A DNA stretch of 64,000 nucleotides, from positions 54,759-118,758 of the forward strand of contig JAFDZV010000047.1 of NCBI GenBank assembly GCA_018266795.1, given 5' to 3'. Every line of letters starts with the position of its first letter. Position 1 is the stretch's first letter. This stretch comes from Bacteroidota bacterium. GTDB taxonomy: Bacteria; Bacteroidota; Ignavibacteria; OLB7. The notes below the pieces were generated by a model. That model saw only the letters and a program-made list of their open reading frames with translations, made no database searches and was not told the DNA's origin. The position numbers and the translations under genes are program-made. Below, piece by piece: positions 43,532 to 47,395 of this stretch.

Positions 43532-43951
43532 ATGAACACAATTCGCACTCGAAGAATCACACTGCTCGGAATACTGGCGGCAGCGATGCTCGCGGTGTCT
43601 GCGTCACCCGGCACGGCCCTGGCACGGCACCCTCTCTGCACGGGCTATACGGTGTTTATCGACGGCACCATACCGGATACGATGAAGGTGGGAGTGGATT
43701 TCCAGAACCTCTCAACCACCATGCATCCCTACACGGTGGCCGGCACATACCACGAAACGGTTTCCAATCCCGGCGCAATGCTGGACGTTGTGATCACGCT
43801 CGGGCCATGCGGCGGCCCGTTCACGGTTCCCGCGGACGGGATGCCTCACAGGATCTCCGGGCTTGCCTCCTGCAATCTCTGCTACAACGTAACCGCCGGA
43901 ACCGATCTGGCGGGGTGCCCGTACATCGCGATCATTCAGGTTCCGTGCTAG
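43532..43951 (+). CDS. Small secreted Cys-rich hypothetical protein
   Basis: Signal peptide MNTIRTRRITLLGILAAAMLAVSASPG. 6 Cys in 139 aa. No family recognised. Confidence 0.45.
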   Translation: MNTIRTRRITLLGILAAAMLAVSASPGTALARHPLCTGYTVFIDGTIPDTMKVGVDFQNLSTTMHPYTVAGTYHETVSNPGAMLDVVITLGPCGGPFTVPADGMPHRISGLASCNLCYNVTAGTDLAGCPYIAIIQVPC

Positions 43952-44073
43952 GCTCTGTCCGACAAGCTTGTTTGGGCCGGACGCGGCGCCCGCGTGTTCG
44001 CGGCCATGTTGCACTCACTCGGGGCGTAGCGCCGCGGTGTATTCGCTCGCGAACGCATCGCGGCGCAGACCAT

Positions 44074-45468
44074 TCAGCCTTCGAGCGCAGTCTGCAGTTT
44101 TCCGTGAATGCCTCCGAAGCCGCCGTTGGACATCACGGCGATCACGTCTCCCGGCTCTACATGCCGTGCGAGATGTTCCACGATATGATCGGCATCCTTC
44201 AGGAAGAGTGTGGTGATCCCGCGTTCCTCCAGATCGTGCTTCAGCCGTTCGGGATCCAGCCGTTCCTCCGGCGGGAGTTCCTCCAGCCGGTCGACCTGCG
44301 CAAGCAGCACCATGTCCGCATCGAAGAAGCACTCCGCCAGTTCCCGTTGGAAGATGTTGCGCCGCGTTGTATTGCTTCGCGGTTCGAACACTCCCCACAG
44401 CCGGTTGTCCGGATGTCGCAGCCTCAGCGCCCGCAGTGTTTCGCGGATCGCCGTGGGGTGATGCGCAAAGTCATCGTACACGCGCACGCCGTTCCACTCT
44501 CCCTTCAATTCCAGGCGACGCCTGGTGTTGCGGAAGCTCCGGTATGCCTCGTCGATTACGTCGTAGCCAACACCGAGCCAGCGGGCGATCACGGCAACGC
44601 CGAGCGCGTTGCGCACGTTGAACTCTCCGAGCAATGCCACCGTAAGGCGGGCCTGAACCTCTCCATTCCGTTCAACATCGAAGCTCGATGTCTCCGCATC
44701 GTATTCGATGTTGCACGCGCGCCACACGCACCGCTCCCCCAGGCCGAACGTCTCCACAGGCGTGAAGGCCTGCCGCACCGCTGCGCGTACGTTCTCGTCG
44801 TCGCCGTTGGCAACAATCAATCCATTGCCGGGGACGATGTTCACCAGACGGCGGAATGAGAGAAGGATATCGTCGAGCGAGGAAAAGATGTCCGCATGAT
44901 CGAACTCGATGTTGTTGATCACCAGAGCGGTCGGGAGATAGTGTACGAACTTGGAGCGTTTGTCGAAGAAGGCCGTATCGTATTCATCCCCTTCCAGCAC
45001 AACCAGATCGCTCGCCGTGCTGTACTGCCAGCCGGCTGTGAAGTTCCCCGGCACCCCGCCGATCATGAAGCTTGGCGAGCGGCCCGTGCATTCCAGCAGC
45101 CACGCCATGAGCGAGGACGTCGTGGTTTTGCCGTGCGTGCCGGTCAGCACGATCGACCTTCGCCCCTGTATCAGCTCATGCTTCAGAAGCTCCGGGAGCG
45201 AGGTATAGCGAAGCCGCGCATCGAGCGCCGCCTCCACCTCGGCATTTCCGCGCGACATGCGGTTGCCGATCACCACCAGATCTGGACTCGGATCCAGGTT
45301 GCCTGCGGCGAAGCCGTTCATGATCGCAACGCCCGCATCGGCCAGCAGATCGCTCATGGGAGGATAGATGTTCTGATCGCTGCCTGTGACGGTGTGGCCC
45401 ATGGCGCGCATCATCAGCGCGACATTTCCCATTGCCGTGCCGCAGATGCCGATGAAGTGAATGTGCAT
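44074..45468 (-). CDS. mpl: UDP-N-acetylmuramate:L-alanyl-gamma-D-glutamyl-meso-diaminopimelate ligase (murein peptide ligase)
   Basis: MHIHFIGICGTAMGNVALMMRAMGHTVTGSD N-terminus (Mpl-type ICGTxMG rather than MurC IGGxGMS). Mur ligase middle domain LTGTHGKTTTSSLMAWLL. 464 aa. Confidence 0.85.
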   Translation of the reverse strand: MHIHFIGICGTAMGNVALMMRAMGHTVTGSDQNIYPPMSDLLADAGVAIMNGFAAGNLDPSPDLVVIGNRMSRGNAEVEAALDARLRYTSLPELLKHELIQGRRSIVLTGTHGKTTTSSLMAWLLECTGRSPSFMIGGVPGNFTAGWQYSTASDLVVLEGDEYDTAFFDKRSKFVHYLPTALVINNIEFDHADIFSSLDDILLSFRRLVNIVPGNGLIVANGDDENVRAAVRQAFTPVETFGLGERCVWRACNIEYDAETSSFDVERNGEVQARLTVALLGEFNVRNALGVAVIARWLGVGYDVIDEAYRSFRNTRRRLELKGEWNGVRVYDDFAHHPTAIRETLRALRLRHPDNRLWGVFEPRSNTTRRNIFQRELAECFFDADMVLLAQVDRLEELPPEERLDPERLKHDLEERGITTLFLKDADHIVEHLARHVEPGDVIAVMSNGGFGGIHGKLQTALEG

Positions 45469-45605
45469 GAAGGCTCTGTATCGAGGGATAGGAACAACGA
45501 TGCCTTCGGCCGGGAATTGGCCATCCCGACGTATCCCGTCCGAAGAATTGAAGCCGCGAAAGATACGGTGAGATTCTGGTGGAATAATCGCTGACCCGAT
45601 GGCGG

Positions 45606-46382
45606 CTACATCGATACGATCGGGAGTTCCAATACGGAAGTGCCTTGCCGAACAGTTGCTCTGTGTCCTGCGGCGGCGGGCATCTCATCGTACGTACGTT
45701 CGTCCAGGAGCCGGCCCGTGCGATCCTTGCGCACGCCACCCCACTGCTTGAAGAAGAACGGCACCTGGCGTCGGGCACACTGCCTGCGAATGGAATCAAC
45801 CCAGACGTACTGCATCGGCCGGGCACCCGGTCCGGACTCGCCGCCTACGATTACCCAGTGGATGCCCTTCAACGGAAGATGCGGCAACGGCCCGATGAGC
45901 GGTTCGCAGGAGAGGAAGCGGACGTGTGCCGGAGTGGCCTGGAGATCGTGAATGCGTGAACGTACCCGTTCATCCTCTACGCTCACACCCATCCAGATGT
46001 TCGCCGCCCAGGGCAGTTCGCCGCCGATCTCTCTCAGGCGTTCGCTGCGCTTTGTCAGGACCTGAAAGGTATGTTGCGGGCAGGCCACCATGGTTTCGAA
46101 CACCATGCGTATGAACTCGAAAGGGATATCCTTGTGGAACAGATCGCTCATGGAGTTCACGAAGATTACCCGCGGCTGCCGCCAACGTCTGGGAGCATCT
46201 ATCAAGTCATCGTGCAGTGTCACTGCAAACTCGTTGCGATAGCGATCCGATCCCATCGCCTTCAATCGCCTTGCCATACGCTCGGCATAGCAGTGCTTGC
46301 ATCCCTGGCTGAGCTTGGTACAGCCGGTGACGGGATTCCACGTGGCCTCCGTCCACTCGATGCTCGATGAACCCGCCATCAT
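45606..46382 (-). CDS. DUF5131 / phage Gp37-Gp68 family three-Cys-motif protein
   Basis: [32 protein letters not shown] (C-x6-C-x2-C) at the N-terminus is the family hallmark. Start abuts the TcmP stop with zero gap. Local GC is lower than the backbone. Confidence 0.85.
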
Positions 46383-47273
46383 CTACCCATTGTCAAGTAT
46401 ATGTCCTGCAATCTTCAGAGCCGCATCCTGTACACTCTTCTTGGGGCTTGCCGTTGCGAAGCAAAGTACGAACAACGGCCCATTGATCGAGTTGTAGAGA
46501 ATCATTGGTTTATTACAGACAGCCGGAAAGATGGTCTTCAAACGCTCCACGATGAATTGGCGGATACGTTCAAGGGTCGTGCTCCGACGTGTCGCGTCGT
46601 CGCTGAATATCGATAACTGTTCAGTCGAGTAGAAAACGGACTGCCACGTATCGATACCAATCACATGCGTAATCCGGTTTGCCCATGCCGCTGGTGGCGG
46701 CCCCTGCCTTGTCAACATACGGTTGAAGGCCATGTAGGGGAACAGGTACCACAGATCAATCGCTTTTGTCCGAGCAATTGCCTCGACCGTATCCCAGGCC
46801 ACTTGCATGCCATAGGGATCGAGAAAGACAACGGCTCGCGTGCGCGACCAGTTCGTCTCCGCACAATACTTTGCAAGGTAAACATTCGCATCGGAGCGCT
46901 CGATGACAATGCGATCCGAGAGAGCAGGGAATTCCTCACGAAGCTTCTCGAGCTCCAGCGTGTGAGTTTCCTTTTGGTCAATGAAGATGTATTTGTCGAA
47001 CGGCTGCGCAAGGCCCAATGCAATGGCTGGGCTTCCTTTCAGATACGCAGTTGCCTCGTGGTCGAGTGAGGGTTCATCGAAGAGAGATGCTGACGTTGAA
47101 TTGGTCTCCATCGTACGATAGCCCGTGCCTGCAAATGCGTCGATGTAAACCGTCGAGAACCAGGGATGCCTACGCAGAATCGTCATGTATGCATCCAGAT
47201 ATTTTTTCAGACATGTCAGCTTTTGCTCCGTCCAGGGGCCACCGAATTCATGCCTGTGATGATCGTGCGACAT
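46383..47273 (-). CDS. tcmP: Three-Cys-motif partner protein TcmP
   Basis: GGPWTEQKLTCLKKYLDAYMTIL...VYIDAFAGTGY (methyltransferase motif-I-like)...AVVFLDPYGMQ (motif-IV-like) fit the TcmP family, which is defined by adjacency to DUF5131. Start taken at internal ATG 47273 (the track ORF extends to 47384). About 50% GC, versus about 65% for the flanking genes. Confidence 0.8.
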   Translation of the reverse strand: MSHDHHRHEFGGPWTEQKLTCLKKYLDAYMTILRRHPWFSTVYIDAFAGTGYRTMETNSTSASLFDEPSLDHEATAYLKGSPAIALGLAQPFDKYIFIDQKETHTLELEKLREEFPALSDRIVIERSDANVYLAKYCAETNWSRTRAVVFLDPYGMQVAWDTVEAIARTKAIDLWYLFPYMAFNRMLTRQGPPPAAWANRITHVIGIDTWQSVFYSTEQLSIFSDDATRRSTTLERIRQFIVERLKTIFPAVCNKPMILYNSINGPLFVLCFATASPKKSVQDAALKIAGHILDNG

Positions 47274-47395
47274 TGATGTAAAGGGAAATGTATATGAGGA
47301 AGGGTCGGCATAATGCCGGTGCGTGTGATGCTGAAACAGGGCTTGGGAGCGCCCTGAAAATACAATGATCGCAGGGAGATTCACTAGCTTGCCTC

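Follow-up and report, generated by a model that had tools for sequence, protein, structure and literature searches.

A TcmP–DUF5131 gene pair between mpl and hpnC in a Bacteroidota genome: a candidate two-enzyme nucleic-acid-modifying module with an exchanged methyltransferase-fold component

Restriction-modification systems of Types I and II join a conserved enzyme to an exchangeable specificity part, and among the nucleic-acid methyltransferases RlmJ forms m6A2030 in 23S rRNA and Trm1 forms m2,2G26 in tRNA. The pairing of TcmP (TIGR04474) with three-Cys proteins of PF07505 (DUF5131) has been present in annotation pipelines and in PADLOC without an assigned chemistry, and our literature searches returned no functional study of, or experiment on, any member of the TcmP or DUF5131 families, in agreement with the preliminary description of this DNA. 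That description also proposed a defence module, an idea that is not new since such pairs are already catalogued as the PADLOC candidate PDC-M41; the PDC systems were proposed through guilt-by-embedding and are explicitly unvalidated (PMC10855318). Here we add fold predictions for the two proteins, relatives whose site is empty and an exchange of TcmP alleles.

In the window, the whole stretch of 64,000 nucleotides analysed here, the pair occupies the interval between mpl and hpnC on the minus strand, with the TcmP gene (46383..47273; 296 aa and a TAG stop) followed by the DUF5131/Gp37-Gp68 gene (45606..46382; 258 aa and a stop). Translation of the window's open reading frames bears out the earlier account of abutting genes and the motifs quoted for them: both genes are intact, and the TAG stop of TcmP (46383-46385) is followed directly by the DUF5131 ATG (46380-46382), while the NCBI annotation begins DUF5131 at a second ATG 3 nt downstream. 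The upper limit first given for the pair, 47384, is the GTG of the longest reading frame; the likely TcmP start is the ATG at 47273, which yields a 296-aa protein that matches the NCBI entry exactly and runs collinear with homologues, and an exact-sequence look-up of the window TcmP returned no record. Both proteins fall firmly in the families first named for them (TcmP 202.5 bits against a curated TIGR04474 cutoff of 53; DUF5131 333.8 bits against a PF07505 gathering threshold of 28.9, over profile positions 2-243 of 243), and with these scores above cutoff, the adjacency and the shared three-Cys motif the pair shows no essential difference from the TcmP–PF07505 pairing. The flanking genes are equally clear, with Mpl at 469 bits (cutoff 389), HpnC at 316 (cutoff 250) and HpnD at 292 (cutoff 279).

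The pair also matches PDC-M41, an assignment that rests on full-length matches to the component HMMs (PDC-M41A, TcmP, 355.8 bits; PDC-M41B, DUF5131, 398.7 bits) together with gene adjacency. It shares the two-gene organisation of PDC-M41, but the window copy has no defence island around it. DUF5131 matches PDC-M30B as well (378 bits); in this sister system PDC-M30A is one of the long TcmP forms that end in a winged helix-turn-helix domain, a domain absent from the window protein. Restriction-modification systems resemble the pair in placing a methyltransferase-fold gene first with a second gene abutting it, and also in low GC, patchy distribution, allele exchange and frequent restriction-modification neighbours, but the pair is without a nuclease, a helicase or translocase and a specificity subunit, and its second enzyme is a radical SAM protein.

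Insertion of the pair into the spacer separating hpnC and mpl, as had been proposed, is supported by the existence of two relatives with an empty site (Mpl 79-80% identical), located by an Mpl homologue search and contig look-ups, in which hpnC adjoins mpl at a distance of about 156 nt. In a metagenome scan with Mpl for empty sites the best match was 59% identical, and synteny was kept in 0 of 80 loci. The stretch that separates the DUF5131 stop from the start of mpl (45469..45605) forms the right edge of the insertion and is partly conserved, by alignment, with L170, a close relative with the pair at the same site and with flanking proteins mostly 92-99.7% identical to those of the window. 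The preliminary description had suggested horizontal acquisition; the insertion stands, whereas a simple recent acquisition of two genes does not, given the pair at the same site in L170.

On this near-identical background the two genes differ in conservation. DUF5131 is 84% identical between the window and L170, TcmP only 46%. At the DNA level identity is 45-55% across TcmP, climbs from 66-80% to 85-90% along DUF5131 and reaches 86-98% in mpl and hpnD; in the DUF5131 protein, residues 1-80 and 81-160 are 87% and 86% identical, and residues 161-236 are 97% identical. On the other side, identity collapses about 10 nt past the hpnC start codon. These DNA and protein profiles place one breakpoint at the start of hpnC and the other near codon 160 of DUF5131, delimiting an exchanged segment at approximately 45900..47385 that takes in TcmP with its promoter and two-thirds of DUF5131 from the 5' end; judged from them, only TcmP and the 5' part of DUF5131 are exchanged between the two genomes. 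The divergent intergenic region between the TcmP and hpnC starts (47274..47395) presumably holds the TcmP promoter and, in the L170 alignment, the left edge of the segment. A sigma-70 promoter and terminator scan gave nothing above expectation, Bacteroidota-type promoters lying outside that scan; att-like direct repeats, tRNA genes, an integrase and a transposase were sought near the pair and none was found; and an Rfam scan of the cassette gave a single sub-threshold snoRNA match that we judge to be chance. The same decoupling is seen in five Gordonia phages, in which DUF5131 is 92-97% identical and its partners 21-48%.

Base composition is uneven as well. The window has a GC content of 61.6%, not the backbone of about 65% assumed earlier. 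TcmP, at 51.9% (GC3 0.60), is the lowest 891-nt stretch of the whole 64 kb (z = -3.7), and DUF5131, at 59.6% (GC3 0.72), is unremarkable (z = -0.74, 24th percentile); the drop begins at about 46.0 kb, within the 5' part of DUF5131. The low-GC cassette first described thus holds for TcmP and the adjoining 5' part of DUF5131 and fails for the rest of that gene. The low GC of TcmP extends to the family, lying under that of its flanks in 62 of 63 genomes.

TcmP is predicted to adopt a Rossmann class I methyltransferase fold, closest to RlmJ and Trm1; RsmD-like and TYW enzymes are the other closest solved folds, all of them RNA methyltransferases. The earlier reading of a methyltransferase-like protein of nucleic-acid type therefore finds backing in the predicted fold, whose nearest neighbours are nucleic-acid amino-methyltransferases. 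Motif I, YIDAFAGTGY (47118..47147, minus strand), fits the pattern D/E-x-F-x-G-x-G through DAFAGTG and forms a putative SAM-binding glycine-rich loop in which D45, G49 and G51 show little or no variation, even in very divergent members; strand 2 is followed by a conserved acidic residue (motif II), and D128 of motif III is nearly invariant even among distant family members. Motif IV, VVFLDPYG (46809..46832, minus strand), contains a putative D-P-x-G catalytic loop, a variant of DPPY, that aligns with LILIDPPYEMK of RlmJ in hhalign. In the family alignment D152 and G155 are invariant and the third residue varies among Y, F, C, T, H and Q, so that DPYG is one Pro short of (D/N)PP(Y/F/W) and its aromatic position is not conserved. 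Trm1 has a 'DPFG' motif, for which our literature search returned no paper and which we do not use as evidence. Sequence likeness to RlmJ and Trm1 is marginal, and unlike them TcmP is accessory, mobile and paired with a radical SAM enzyme. TcmP matched no methyltransferase model in Pfam, nor any Pfam family. A large hypervariable target-recognition domain was considered and ruled out: variability is spread along the protein, with its peak in a 20-residue disordered loop.

DUF5131 had been described as merely reminiscent of, and distinct from, radical SAM enzymes, a view that we revise. Its predicted fold is the partial (beta/alpha)6 barrel of radical SAM proteins, closest to spore photoproduct lyase and with RlmN, Cfr and TYW1 also among the matches; it scores 75.1 bits (E = 5.5e-21) against the curated radical SAM model TIGR04471, whose equivalog cutoff is 355; and it is listed as a radical SAM subgroup in SFLD/RadicalSAM.org (PMC9477430). 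The N-terminal C-x6-C-x2-C motif first pointed out is present as C21-x6-C28-x2-C31 (46290..46325, minus strand), its three cysteines invariant in 31 homologues and putative ligands of a [4Fe-4S] cluster. Aligned to a canonical radical SAM partner, the motif falls on that protein's CX3CX2C loop and carries three extra residues. DUF5131 differs from spore photoproduct lyase and its relatives (PA0069/Rv2578c) in this CX6CX2C spacing in place of the canonical CX3CX2C, in matching no PF04055 model in Pfam and in being shorter (258 aa), and we assign it none of the lyase or repair activity of those enzymes. Profile alignments were collinear and motif-matching for both proteins but of low probability (TcmP against E. 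coli RlmJ, E = 0.03, probability 1.7%; DUF5131 against the canonical radical SAM partner, probability 8.5%), and we therefore use them as supporting evidence only. PDB sequence searches with both family profiles gave chance-level matches (ferritin, chemokine) and no methyltransferase, so neither family appears to have a solved relative.

Family-wide, TcmP precedes DUF5131 on the same strand in 68 of 79 loci with a median gap of 3 nt, and the order is reversed in two; in phages and on pSymA the two genes can also converge. The TcmP profile matches 4,958 clusters (50% identity) at E <= 1e-3 and 1,218 at E <= 1e-30, and the pairing is found in many bacterial phyla, on plasmids and in temperate phages. 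In five loci without DUF5131, TcmP adjoins a canonical CX3CX2C radical SAM gene of the PA0069/Rv2578c kind, gene-order evidence that photoproduct-lyase-like radical SAM enzymes can replace DUF5131 by paralogous displacement. These alternative partners resemble protein B of the radical SAM mobile pair (TIGR04470; 44-59 bits for four full-length open reading frames, 32 bits for a short one), as DUF5131 resembles protein A (TIGR04471). All scores lie far below the equivalog cutoffs of 355 (TIGR04471) and 410 (TIGR04470), and we thus assign no membership in the mobile pair, from which the window pair also differs in that its partner is a methyltransferase-fold protein and not a second radical SAM enzyme.

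The genomic surroundings of the pair are mixed. Within the window its neighbours are housekeeping genes with no defence island among them, as are its neighbours in Roseiflexus; in Rubrobacter it lies inside a putative mobile element, on conjugative plasmids it sits next to Abi genes, and one locus holds DUF5131 and HsdM in a single open reading frame. The commonest families among 144 nearest neighbours are N6_Mtase (4), HSDR_N (3), MmeI_Mtase (3) and ResIII (3), none of which is among the top families of 133 mpl neighbours examined as a control, and 199 PADLOC families were matched by neighbours of the pair against 43 for the mpl control. As to the defence-island enrichment that the preliminary description suggested as a check, the window copy lies in no such island, and elsewhere restriction-modification families are the commonest neighbours, with defence or restriction-modification genes adjoining the pair in a minority of the 80 loci. 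In the loci examined, homologous pairs are not structural phage genes, a point the preliminary description had raised.

DUF5131 occurs in 181 phage records; for only 16 of these did direct tblastn detect a partner of the TcmP family. We considered whether phage DUF5131 generally goes without TcmP and rejected the idea: very divergent TcmP-family 'methyltransferases', missed by simple tblastn, adjoin DUF5131 in Gordonia phages. The immunity repressor of temperate Gordonia phages is followed directly, within the lysogeny module, by the partner gene. Mycobacteriophage Sbash also carries DUF5131, at a locus other than that of its proven defence genes, which we take to be 30 and 31. In phage CarolAnn a proven defence pair, genes 43/44, occupies the same position downstream of the immunity repressor, and these genes are distant relatives of Sbash genes 31/30 (PMC6426606).

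Taken together, these observations lead us to posit, at a probability of roughly 55%, that the pair is a self-contained, mobile, SAM-dependent two-enzyme module that modifies nucleic acid in phage or mobile-element conflict. DUF5131 would bind a [4Fe-4S] cluster and cleave SAM to a 5'-deoxyadenosyl radical; TcmP would bind SAM, select a base of a nucleic acid (most likely of DNA), flip it and methylate an exocyclic amine. Both enzymes would work on one target nucleotide or site to yield a modified or damaged base, a chemistry that would either mark self DNA or harm invading DNA, with TcmP as the target-contacting part under diversifying selection in the conflict between host, phage and mobile element. 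An RNA target is possible, since RlmJ and Trm1 act on RNA. Speaking against this module are the lack of a nuclease or other obvious effector in the pair, the housekeeping neighbours in the window and Roseiflexus with defence neighbours in a minority of loci, a TcmP with neither a large variable target-recognition domain nor a Pfam methyltransferase match, the weak sequence link to RlmJ with an unconserved motif IV aromatic residue, and the small share of phage records with a directly detected partner. A more ambitious version, a new form of nucleic-acid immunity in which a conserved lyase-like radical SAM enzyme is steered by interchangeable methyltransferase-fold partners to modify or damage bases by radical chemistry with no nuclease, strikes us as unlikely.

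Several other arrangements could be built from the same two enzymes. TcmP might self-mark host DNA and DUF5131 inflict radical damage on unmarked DNA, giving restriction-like immunity with no nuclease; the methyltransferase gene placed first and abutting its partner, as in many restriction-modification operons, the orphan TcmP of one locus that lacks DUF5131 and has no radical SAM gene next to it, the restriction-modification genes that are its commonest neighbours and a closest solved fold for DUF5131 that is a DNA-acting radical SAM enzyme would all suit it. But if DUF5131 read a specific mark, a swap of the methyltransferase alone would be lethal, yet TcmP has been swapped with much of DUF5131 kept, many phages carry DUF5131 with no partner detected, and TcmP has no evident DNA sequence-recognition domain, so we hold this arrangement to be improbable. 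Equally doubtful in our judgment is a camouflage role, in which the pair hypermodifies the DNA of its carrier element or host and blocks foreign restriction: the pair's occurrence in phages and on conjugative plasmids, its lack of an effector gene, its adjacency or fusion to DNA methyltransferases and its family-wide low GC and mobility would fit, but DNA hypermodification genes usually sit among early lytic or replication genes, whereas the Gordonia partner lies in the lysogeny module after the repressor, and the window pair lies on the chromosome, where its surroundings hold no mobile-element genes.

Two further readings were considered. DUF5131 could make an antiviral nucleotide analogue in the manner of viperin, with TcmP methylating the substrate or product, but its best match is spore photoproduct lyase, the alternative TcmP partners are lyase-like, the folds closest to TcmP act on bases in RNA polymers and not on free nucleotides, and the neighbouring and fused genes are DNA methyltransferases, all of which makes this reading very unlikely. 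An accessory rRNA or tRNA modification pair, conferring for example Cfr-like resistance to antibiotics or ribotoxins with no part in phage conflict, would accord with RNA methyltransferases as the closest solved folds to TcmP (RlmJ, Trm1, RsmD-like, TYW), with RlmN, Cfr and TYW1 among the DUF5131 matches and with the housekeeping neighbours in the window; we give it a slimmer chance still, because the site is empty in related genomes, alleles have been replaced from one close relative to another and from phage to phage, low GC is family-wide, and the pair turns up next to Abi and restriction-modification genes as well as within the lysogeny module of a prophage.

Should the proposed two-enzyme module modify DNA or confer immunity, radical SAM chemistry on polymers would join the repertoire of host-virus conflict. 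The candidate key residues are C21, C28 and C31 of DUF5131 and D45, G49, D152 and G155 of TcmP, and the window and L170 loci form a natural pair of swapped TcmP alleles.

The two abutting genes in the window belong to an already known family, TcmP/PF07505, which PADLOC lists as candidate defence system PDC-M41. In the HMM searches proposed by the preliminary description, DUF5131 matched PF07505 at 333.8 bits and TcmP matched TIGR04474 at 202.5 bits, and PDC-M41 matched both proteins (A, 355.8 bits; B, 398.7 bits). A second PADLOC model, PDC-M30B, matched DUF5131, as did PHROG 2045; TcmP matched no PHROG and no Pfam family. PDC systems are guilt-by-embedding candidates that have not been validated (PMC10855318), and SFLD/RadicalSAM.org lists DUF5131 as a radical-SAM subgroup (PMC9477430). 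The earlier observation holds for the most part, the GC figures and the TcmP start needing correction. The earlier proposal of a phage-defence or anti-defence module is reasonable, but it is already catalogued as PDC-M41 and has candidate status only. Sequence searches detected no solved structure of a relative of either protein, and literature searches returned no functional study of either family; the identity and fold assignments of both proteins are secure.

DUF5131 is an intact minus-strand ORF of 258 aa (45606-46382), and the stop codon of the likewise intact TcmP ORF, TAG at 46383-46385 on the same strand, directly precedes its ATG at 46380-46382, bearing out the abutting arrangement described before; every motif quoted then is likewise found in the translations. 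The upper limit of 47384 stands as the GTG start of the longest TcmP ORF, not as the likely start of the gene: we take the ATG at 47273 as the probable start because the resulting 296-aa protein is identical to the NCBI entry 'TcmP [Bacteroidetes bacterium]' and collinear with its homologues. The flanking genes encode Mpl, HpnC and HpnD, all above their own NCBIfam cutoffs.

A joint function of TcmP and DUF5131 and the mobility of the module are both well supported. The TcmP profile retrieved 80 loci from many phyla. Among the 79 with a TcmP ORF, DUF5131 lies directly 3' on the same strand in 68 (median gap 3 nt), in reverse order in 2 and in fragments in 1 (L025, 10930-11610, three ORF pieces, probably a pseudogene); it is absent from 8. 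In five of these eight (L006, L032, L033, L049 and L072) TcmP instead adjoins a canonical radical SAM gene with a CX3CX2C motif. These genes are of the PA0069/Rv2578c type, photoproduct-lyase-like families, and one of them contains an intein. The DUF5131 cluster loop aligns with the CX3CX2C loop of these partners, with a 3-residue insertion in DUF5131. Such replacement by a canonical paralogue supports both a functional link and a radical SAM role for DUF5131. The gene beside TcmP in Lyngbya sp. PCC 8106 (L032, 7230-9191, minus strand, 654 aa) scores 131 bits against a model of intein-containing Rv2578c-family proteins, whose cutoff is 700, and an intein probably interrupts its radical SAM domain.

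Other arrangements also occur. A 937-aa ORF in a Thermoflexales MAG (L015, 1202-4012, plus strand) joins DUF5131 to a Type I HsdM (HsdM_N + N6_Mtase), either as a genuine fusion or through an error of assembly. Three loci (L036, L044 and L050) share the order TcmP, DUF5131, long TcmP, N6-methyltransferase, the long form being of the PDC-M30A type with a C-terminal winged helix-turn-helix domain. On S. meliloti pSymA (L084, 5343-11004), hna, a proven defence gene (PMC12445080), precedes a short tcmP on one strand, and the source paper groups the two into a single transcription unit; a long tcmP and DUF5131 are convergent to them. As at the preceding three loci, pSymA has two TcmP paralogues per one DUF5131.

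An alignment of 11 TcmP members, comprising short forms, long forms and phage 'methyltransferases', shows as invariant or near-invariant K18, Y25, D45/G49/G51 of motif I, G80-S81, D128 and, in the D-P/Q-x-G loop, D152 and G155; there is an acidic residue after strand 2, and the aromatic position of motif IV is variable. A weak hhalign match to RlmJ (E 0.03) aligns VVFLD-PYGMQ with LILIDPPYEMK and DLWYLFP with ALWYPVV.

The pair had been described as a low-GC cassette in a backbone of about 65%. The 64-kb window averages 61.6% GC, and the description holds for TcmP (51.9%, GC3 0.60, the lowest of all 891-nt stretches, z = -3.7) but not for DUF5131 as a whole (59.6%, GC3 0.72, z = -0.74), which is inside the host range; the drop sets in near 46.0 kb, within the 5' portion of DUF5131. 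TcmP is lower in GC than its flanks in 62 of 63 genomes (mean -9.1 points; GC3 -17 points) and DUF5131 in 54 of 63 (-4.7; GC3 -10). Low GC thus characterises the family as a whole and does not mean that the pair reached this genome recently.

Relatives reveal how the site varies. The hpnC/mpl spacer (window 45469-47395) is a variable spot in this lineage: L171 and L172, whose Mpl proteins are 79-80% identical, share the synteny with about 156 nt and no pair; L173 holds another insertion (an ECF sigma factor, a Lactamase_B/Rhodanese protein and TauE); and L170, a Candidatus Kapabacteria MAG closely related to the window, carries the pair there too. In L172, hpnC and hpnD are separated by an additional DUF5005/Por_Secre_tail gene.

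Between the window and L170, nine of 11 flanking proteins are 92-99.7% identical, HpnC 87% and a distal 258-aa ORF 74%, and DUF5131 is 84% identical and TcmP 46%. At the DNA level, mpl and hpnD are 86-98% identical and TcmP with its promoter region 45-55%, and identity along DUF5131 climbs from 66-80% to 85-90%; by protein segment, DUF5131 identity is 87% (residues 1-80), 86% (81-160) and 97% (161-236), L170 being no closer over residues 1-80 than homologues from other phyla. On the hpnC side, divergence sets in about 10 nt past the hpnC start codon. From these comparisons we read a segment of about 1.5 kb as having been replaced through homologous recombination, with the conserved DUF5131 gene as the anchor. 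Divergence of the TcmP segment in place is implausible because synonymous sites are saturated solely inside the exchanged segment. Both TcmP alleles are orphans, with best relatives 50-57% identical. Over 2,278 pairs of genome loci, TcmP identity is only weakly correlated with DUF5131 identity (Spearman 0.13); in close pairs the two usually vary together, so that the window/L170 pair stands out as an outlier.

For the pair, the 144 nearest neighbours span 170 Pfam families, each in at most 4 proteins (most often N6_Mtase 4, Radical_SAM 4; HSDR_N, MmeI_Mtase, ResIII, AAA_23 and Peptidase_S24 3 each), whereas 133 nearest neighbours of mpl, handled identically, span 66, mostly conserved housekeeping, with restriction-modification families absent from the 25 listed. 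PADLOC families matched number 199 versus 43, those beside the pair including Type I, IIG and III methyltransferases, DrmMI, MADS mad2 and PsyrA. Given this diversity and the mpl control, the pair is self-contained and mobile; genes for restriction-modification and defence turn up repeatedly beside it, though in no more than a minority of loci, and not beside the control. Settings range from housekeeping genes (Roseiflexus and the window, where no integrase, tRNA gene or att repeats were found around the pair) to a Rubrobacter mobile element or defence island with ImmA/IrrE, LexA-like, primase-polymerase, SNase and SIR2 genes, and a Leisingera plasmid with nearby Abi genes.

The pattern recurs in five temperate Gordonia phages, where DUF5131 is 92-97% identical and the adjacent TcmP-family 'methyltransferases' 21-48%. 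Fairfaxidum, Angelique and Easley share the order integrase, HTH, metalloprotease, DUF5131 and convergent methyltransferase, the last directly downstream of the immunity repressor; in phage CarolAnn this position holds a proven, unrelated defence pair co-transcribed with the repressor (PMC6426606). BaxterFox has a similar order with the integrase on the other strand, and in Jablanski two same-strand hypothetical genes separate the methyltransferase from the opposite-strand repressor. The BaxterFox DUF5131 ORF (NC_031226, 5001-5753; 377 bits to the family profile) is unannotated and overlaid by opposite-strand genes 40, 41 and the end of 39, apparently a misannotation.

On the basis of the nearest folds, the fusion and neighbour evidence, the prophage position and the exchange of TcmP alleles, we infer a nucleic-acid target (probably DNA), radical SAM chemistry by DUF5131, and a role for the module in phage or mobile-element conflict; allele exchange resembles the pattern seen in parts under diversifying selection. 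Several points weigh against this reading: the pair lacks an effector gene and TcmP a large variable recognition domain, literature searches turned up no experimental work on the family, the enzymes nearest to TcmP in fold have RNA substrates, and many loci, the window included, sit among housekeeping genes. TcmP exchange, family-wide low GC and replacement of DUF5131 by a lyase-like radical SAM protein, which did not appear in the literature searched, make the family a well-defined experimental target.

Smaller features also mark the locus. A 17-nt inverted repeat (88% complementary; 45598-45614 and 46364-46380) falls exactly at the DUF5131 stop and start codons, although by rough estimate 0.2-0.5 such pairs arise by chance per 2.3 kb and it may be meaningless. 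About 400 nt between ptsP and mpl (window ~43680-44080) are absent from L170 and cover much of a 139-aa ORF (43532-43951) whose N-terminus resembles a signal peptide and which matches no family. The variable C-terminal tail of DUF5131 (L170 9560-9700; window 45609-45700) carries PLRQLSTH twice in tandem in L170, a duplication that the window lacks.
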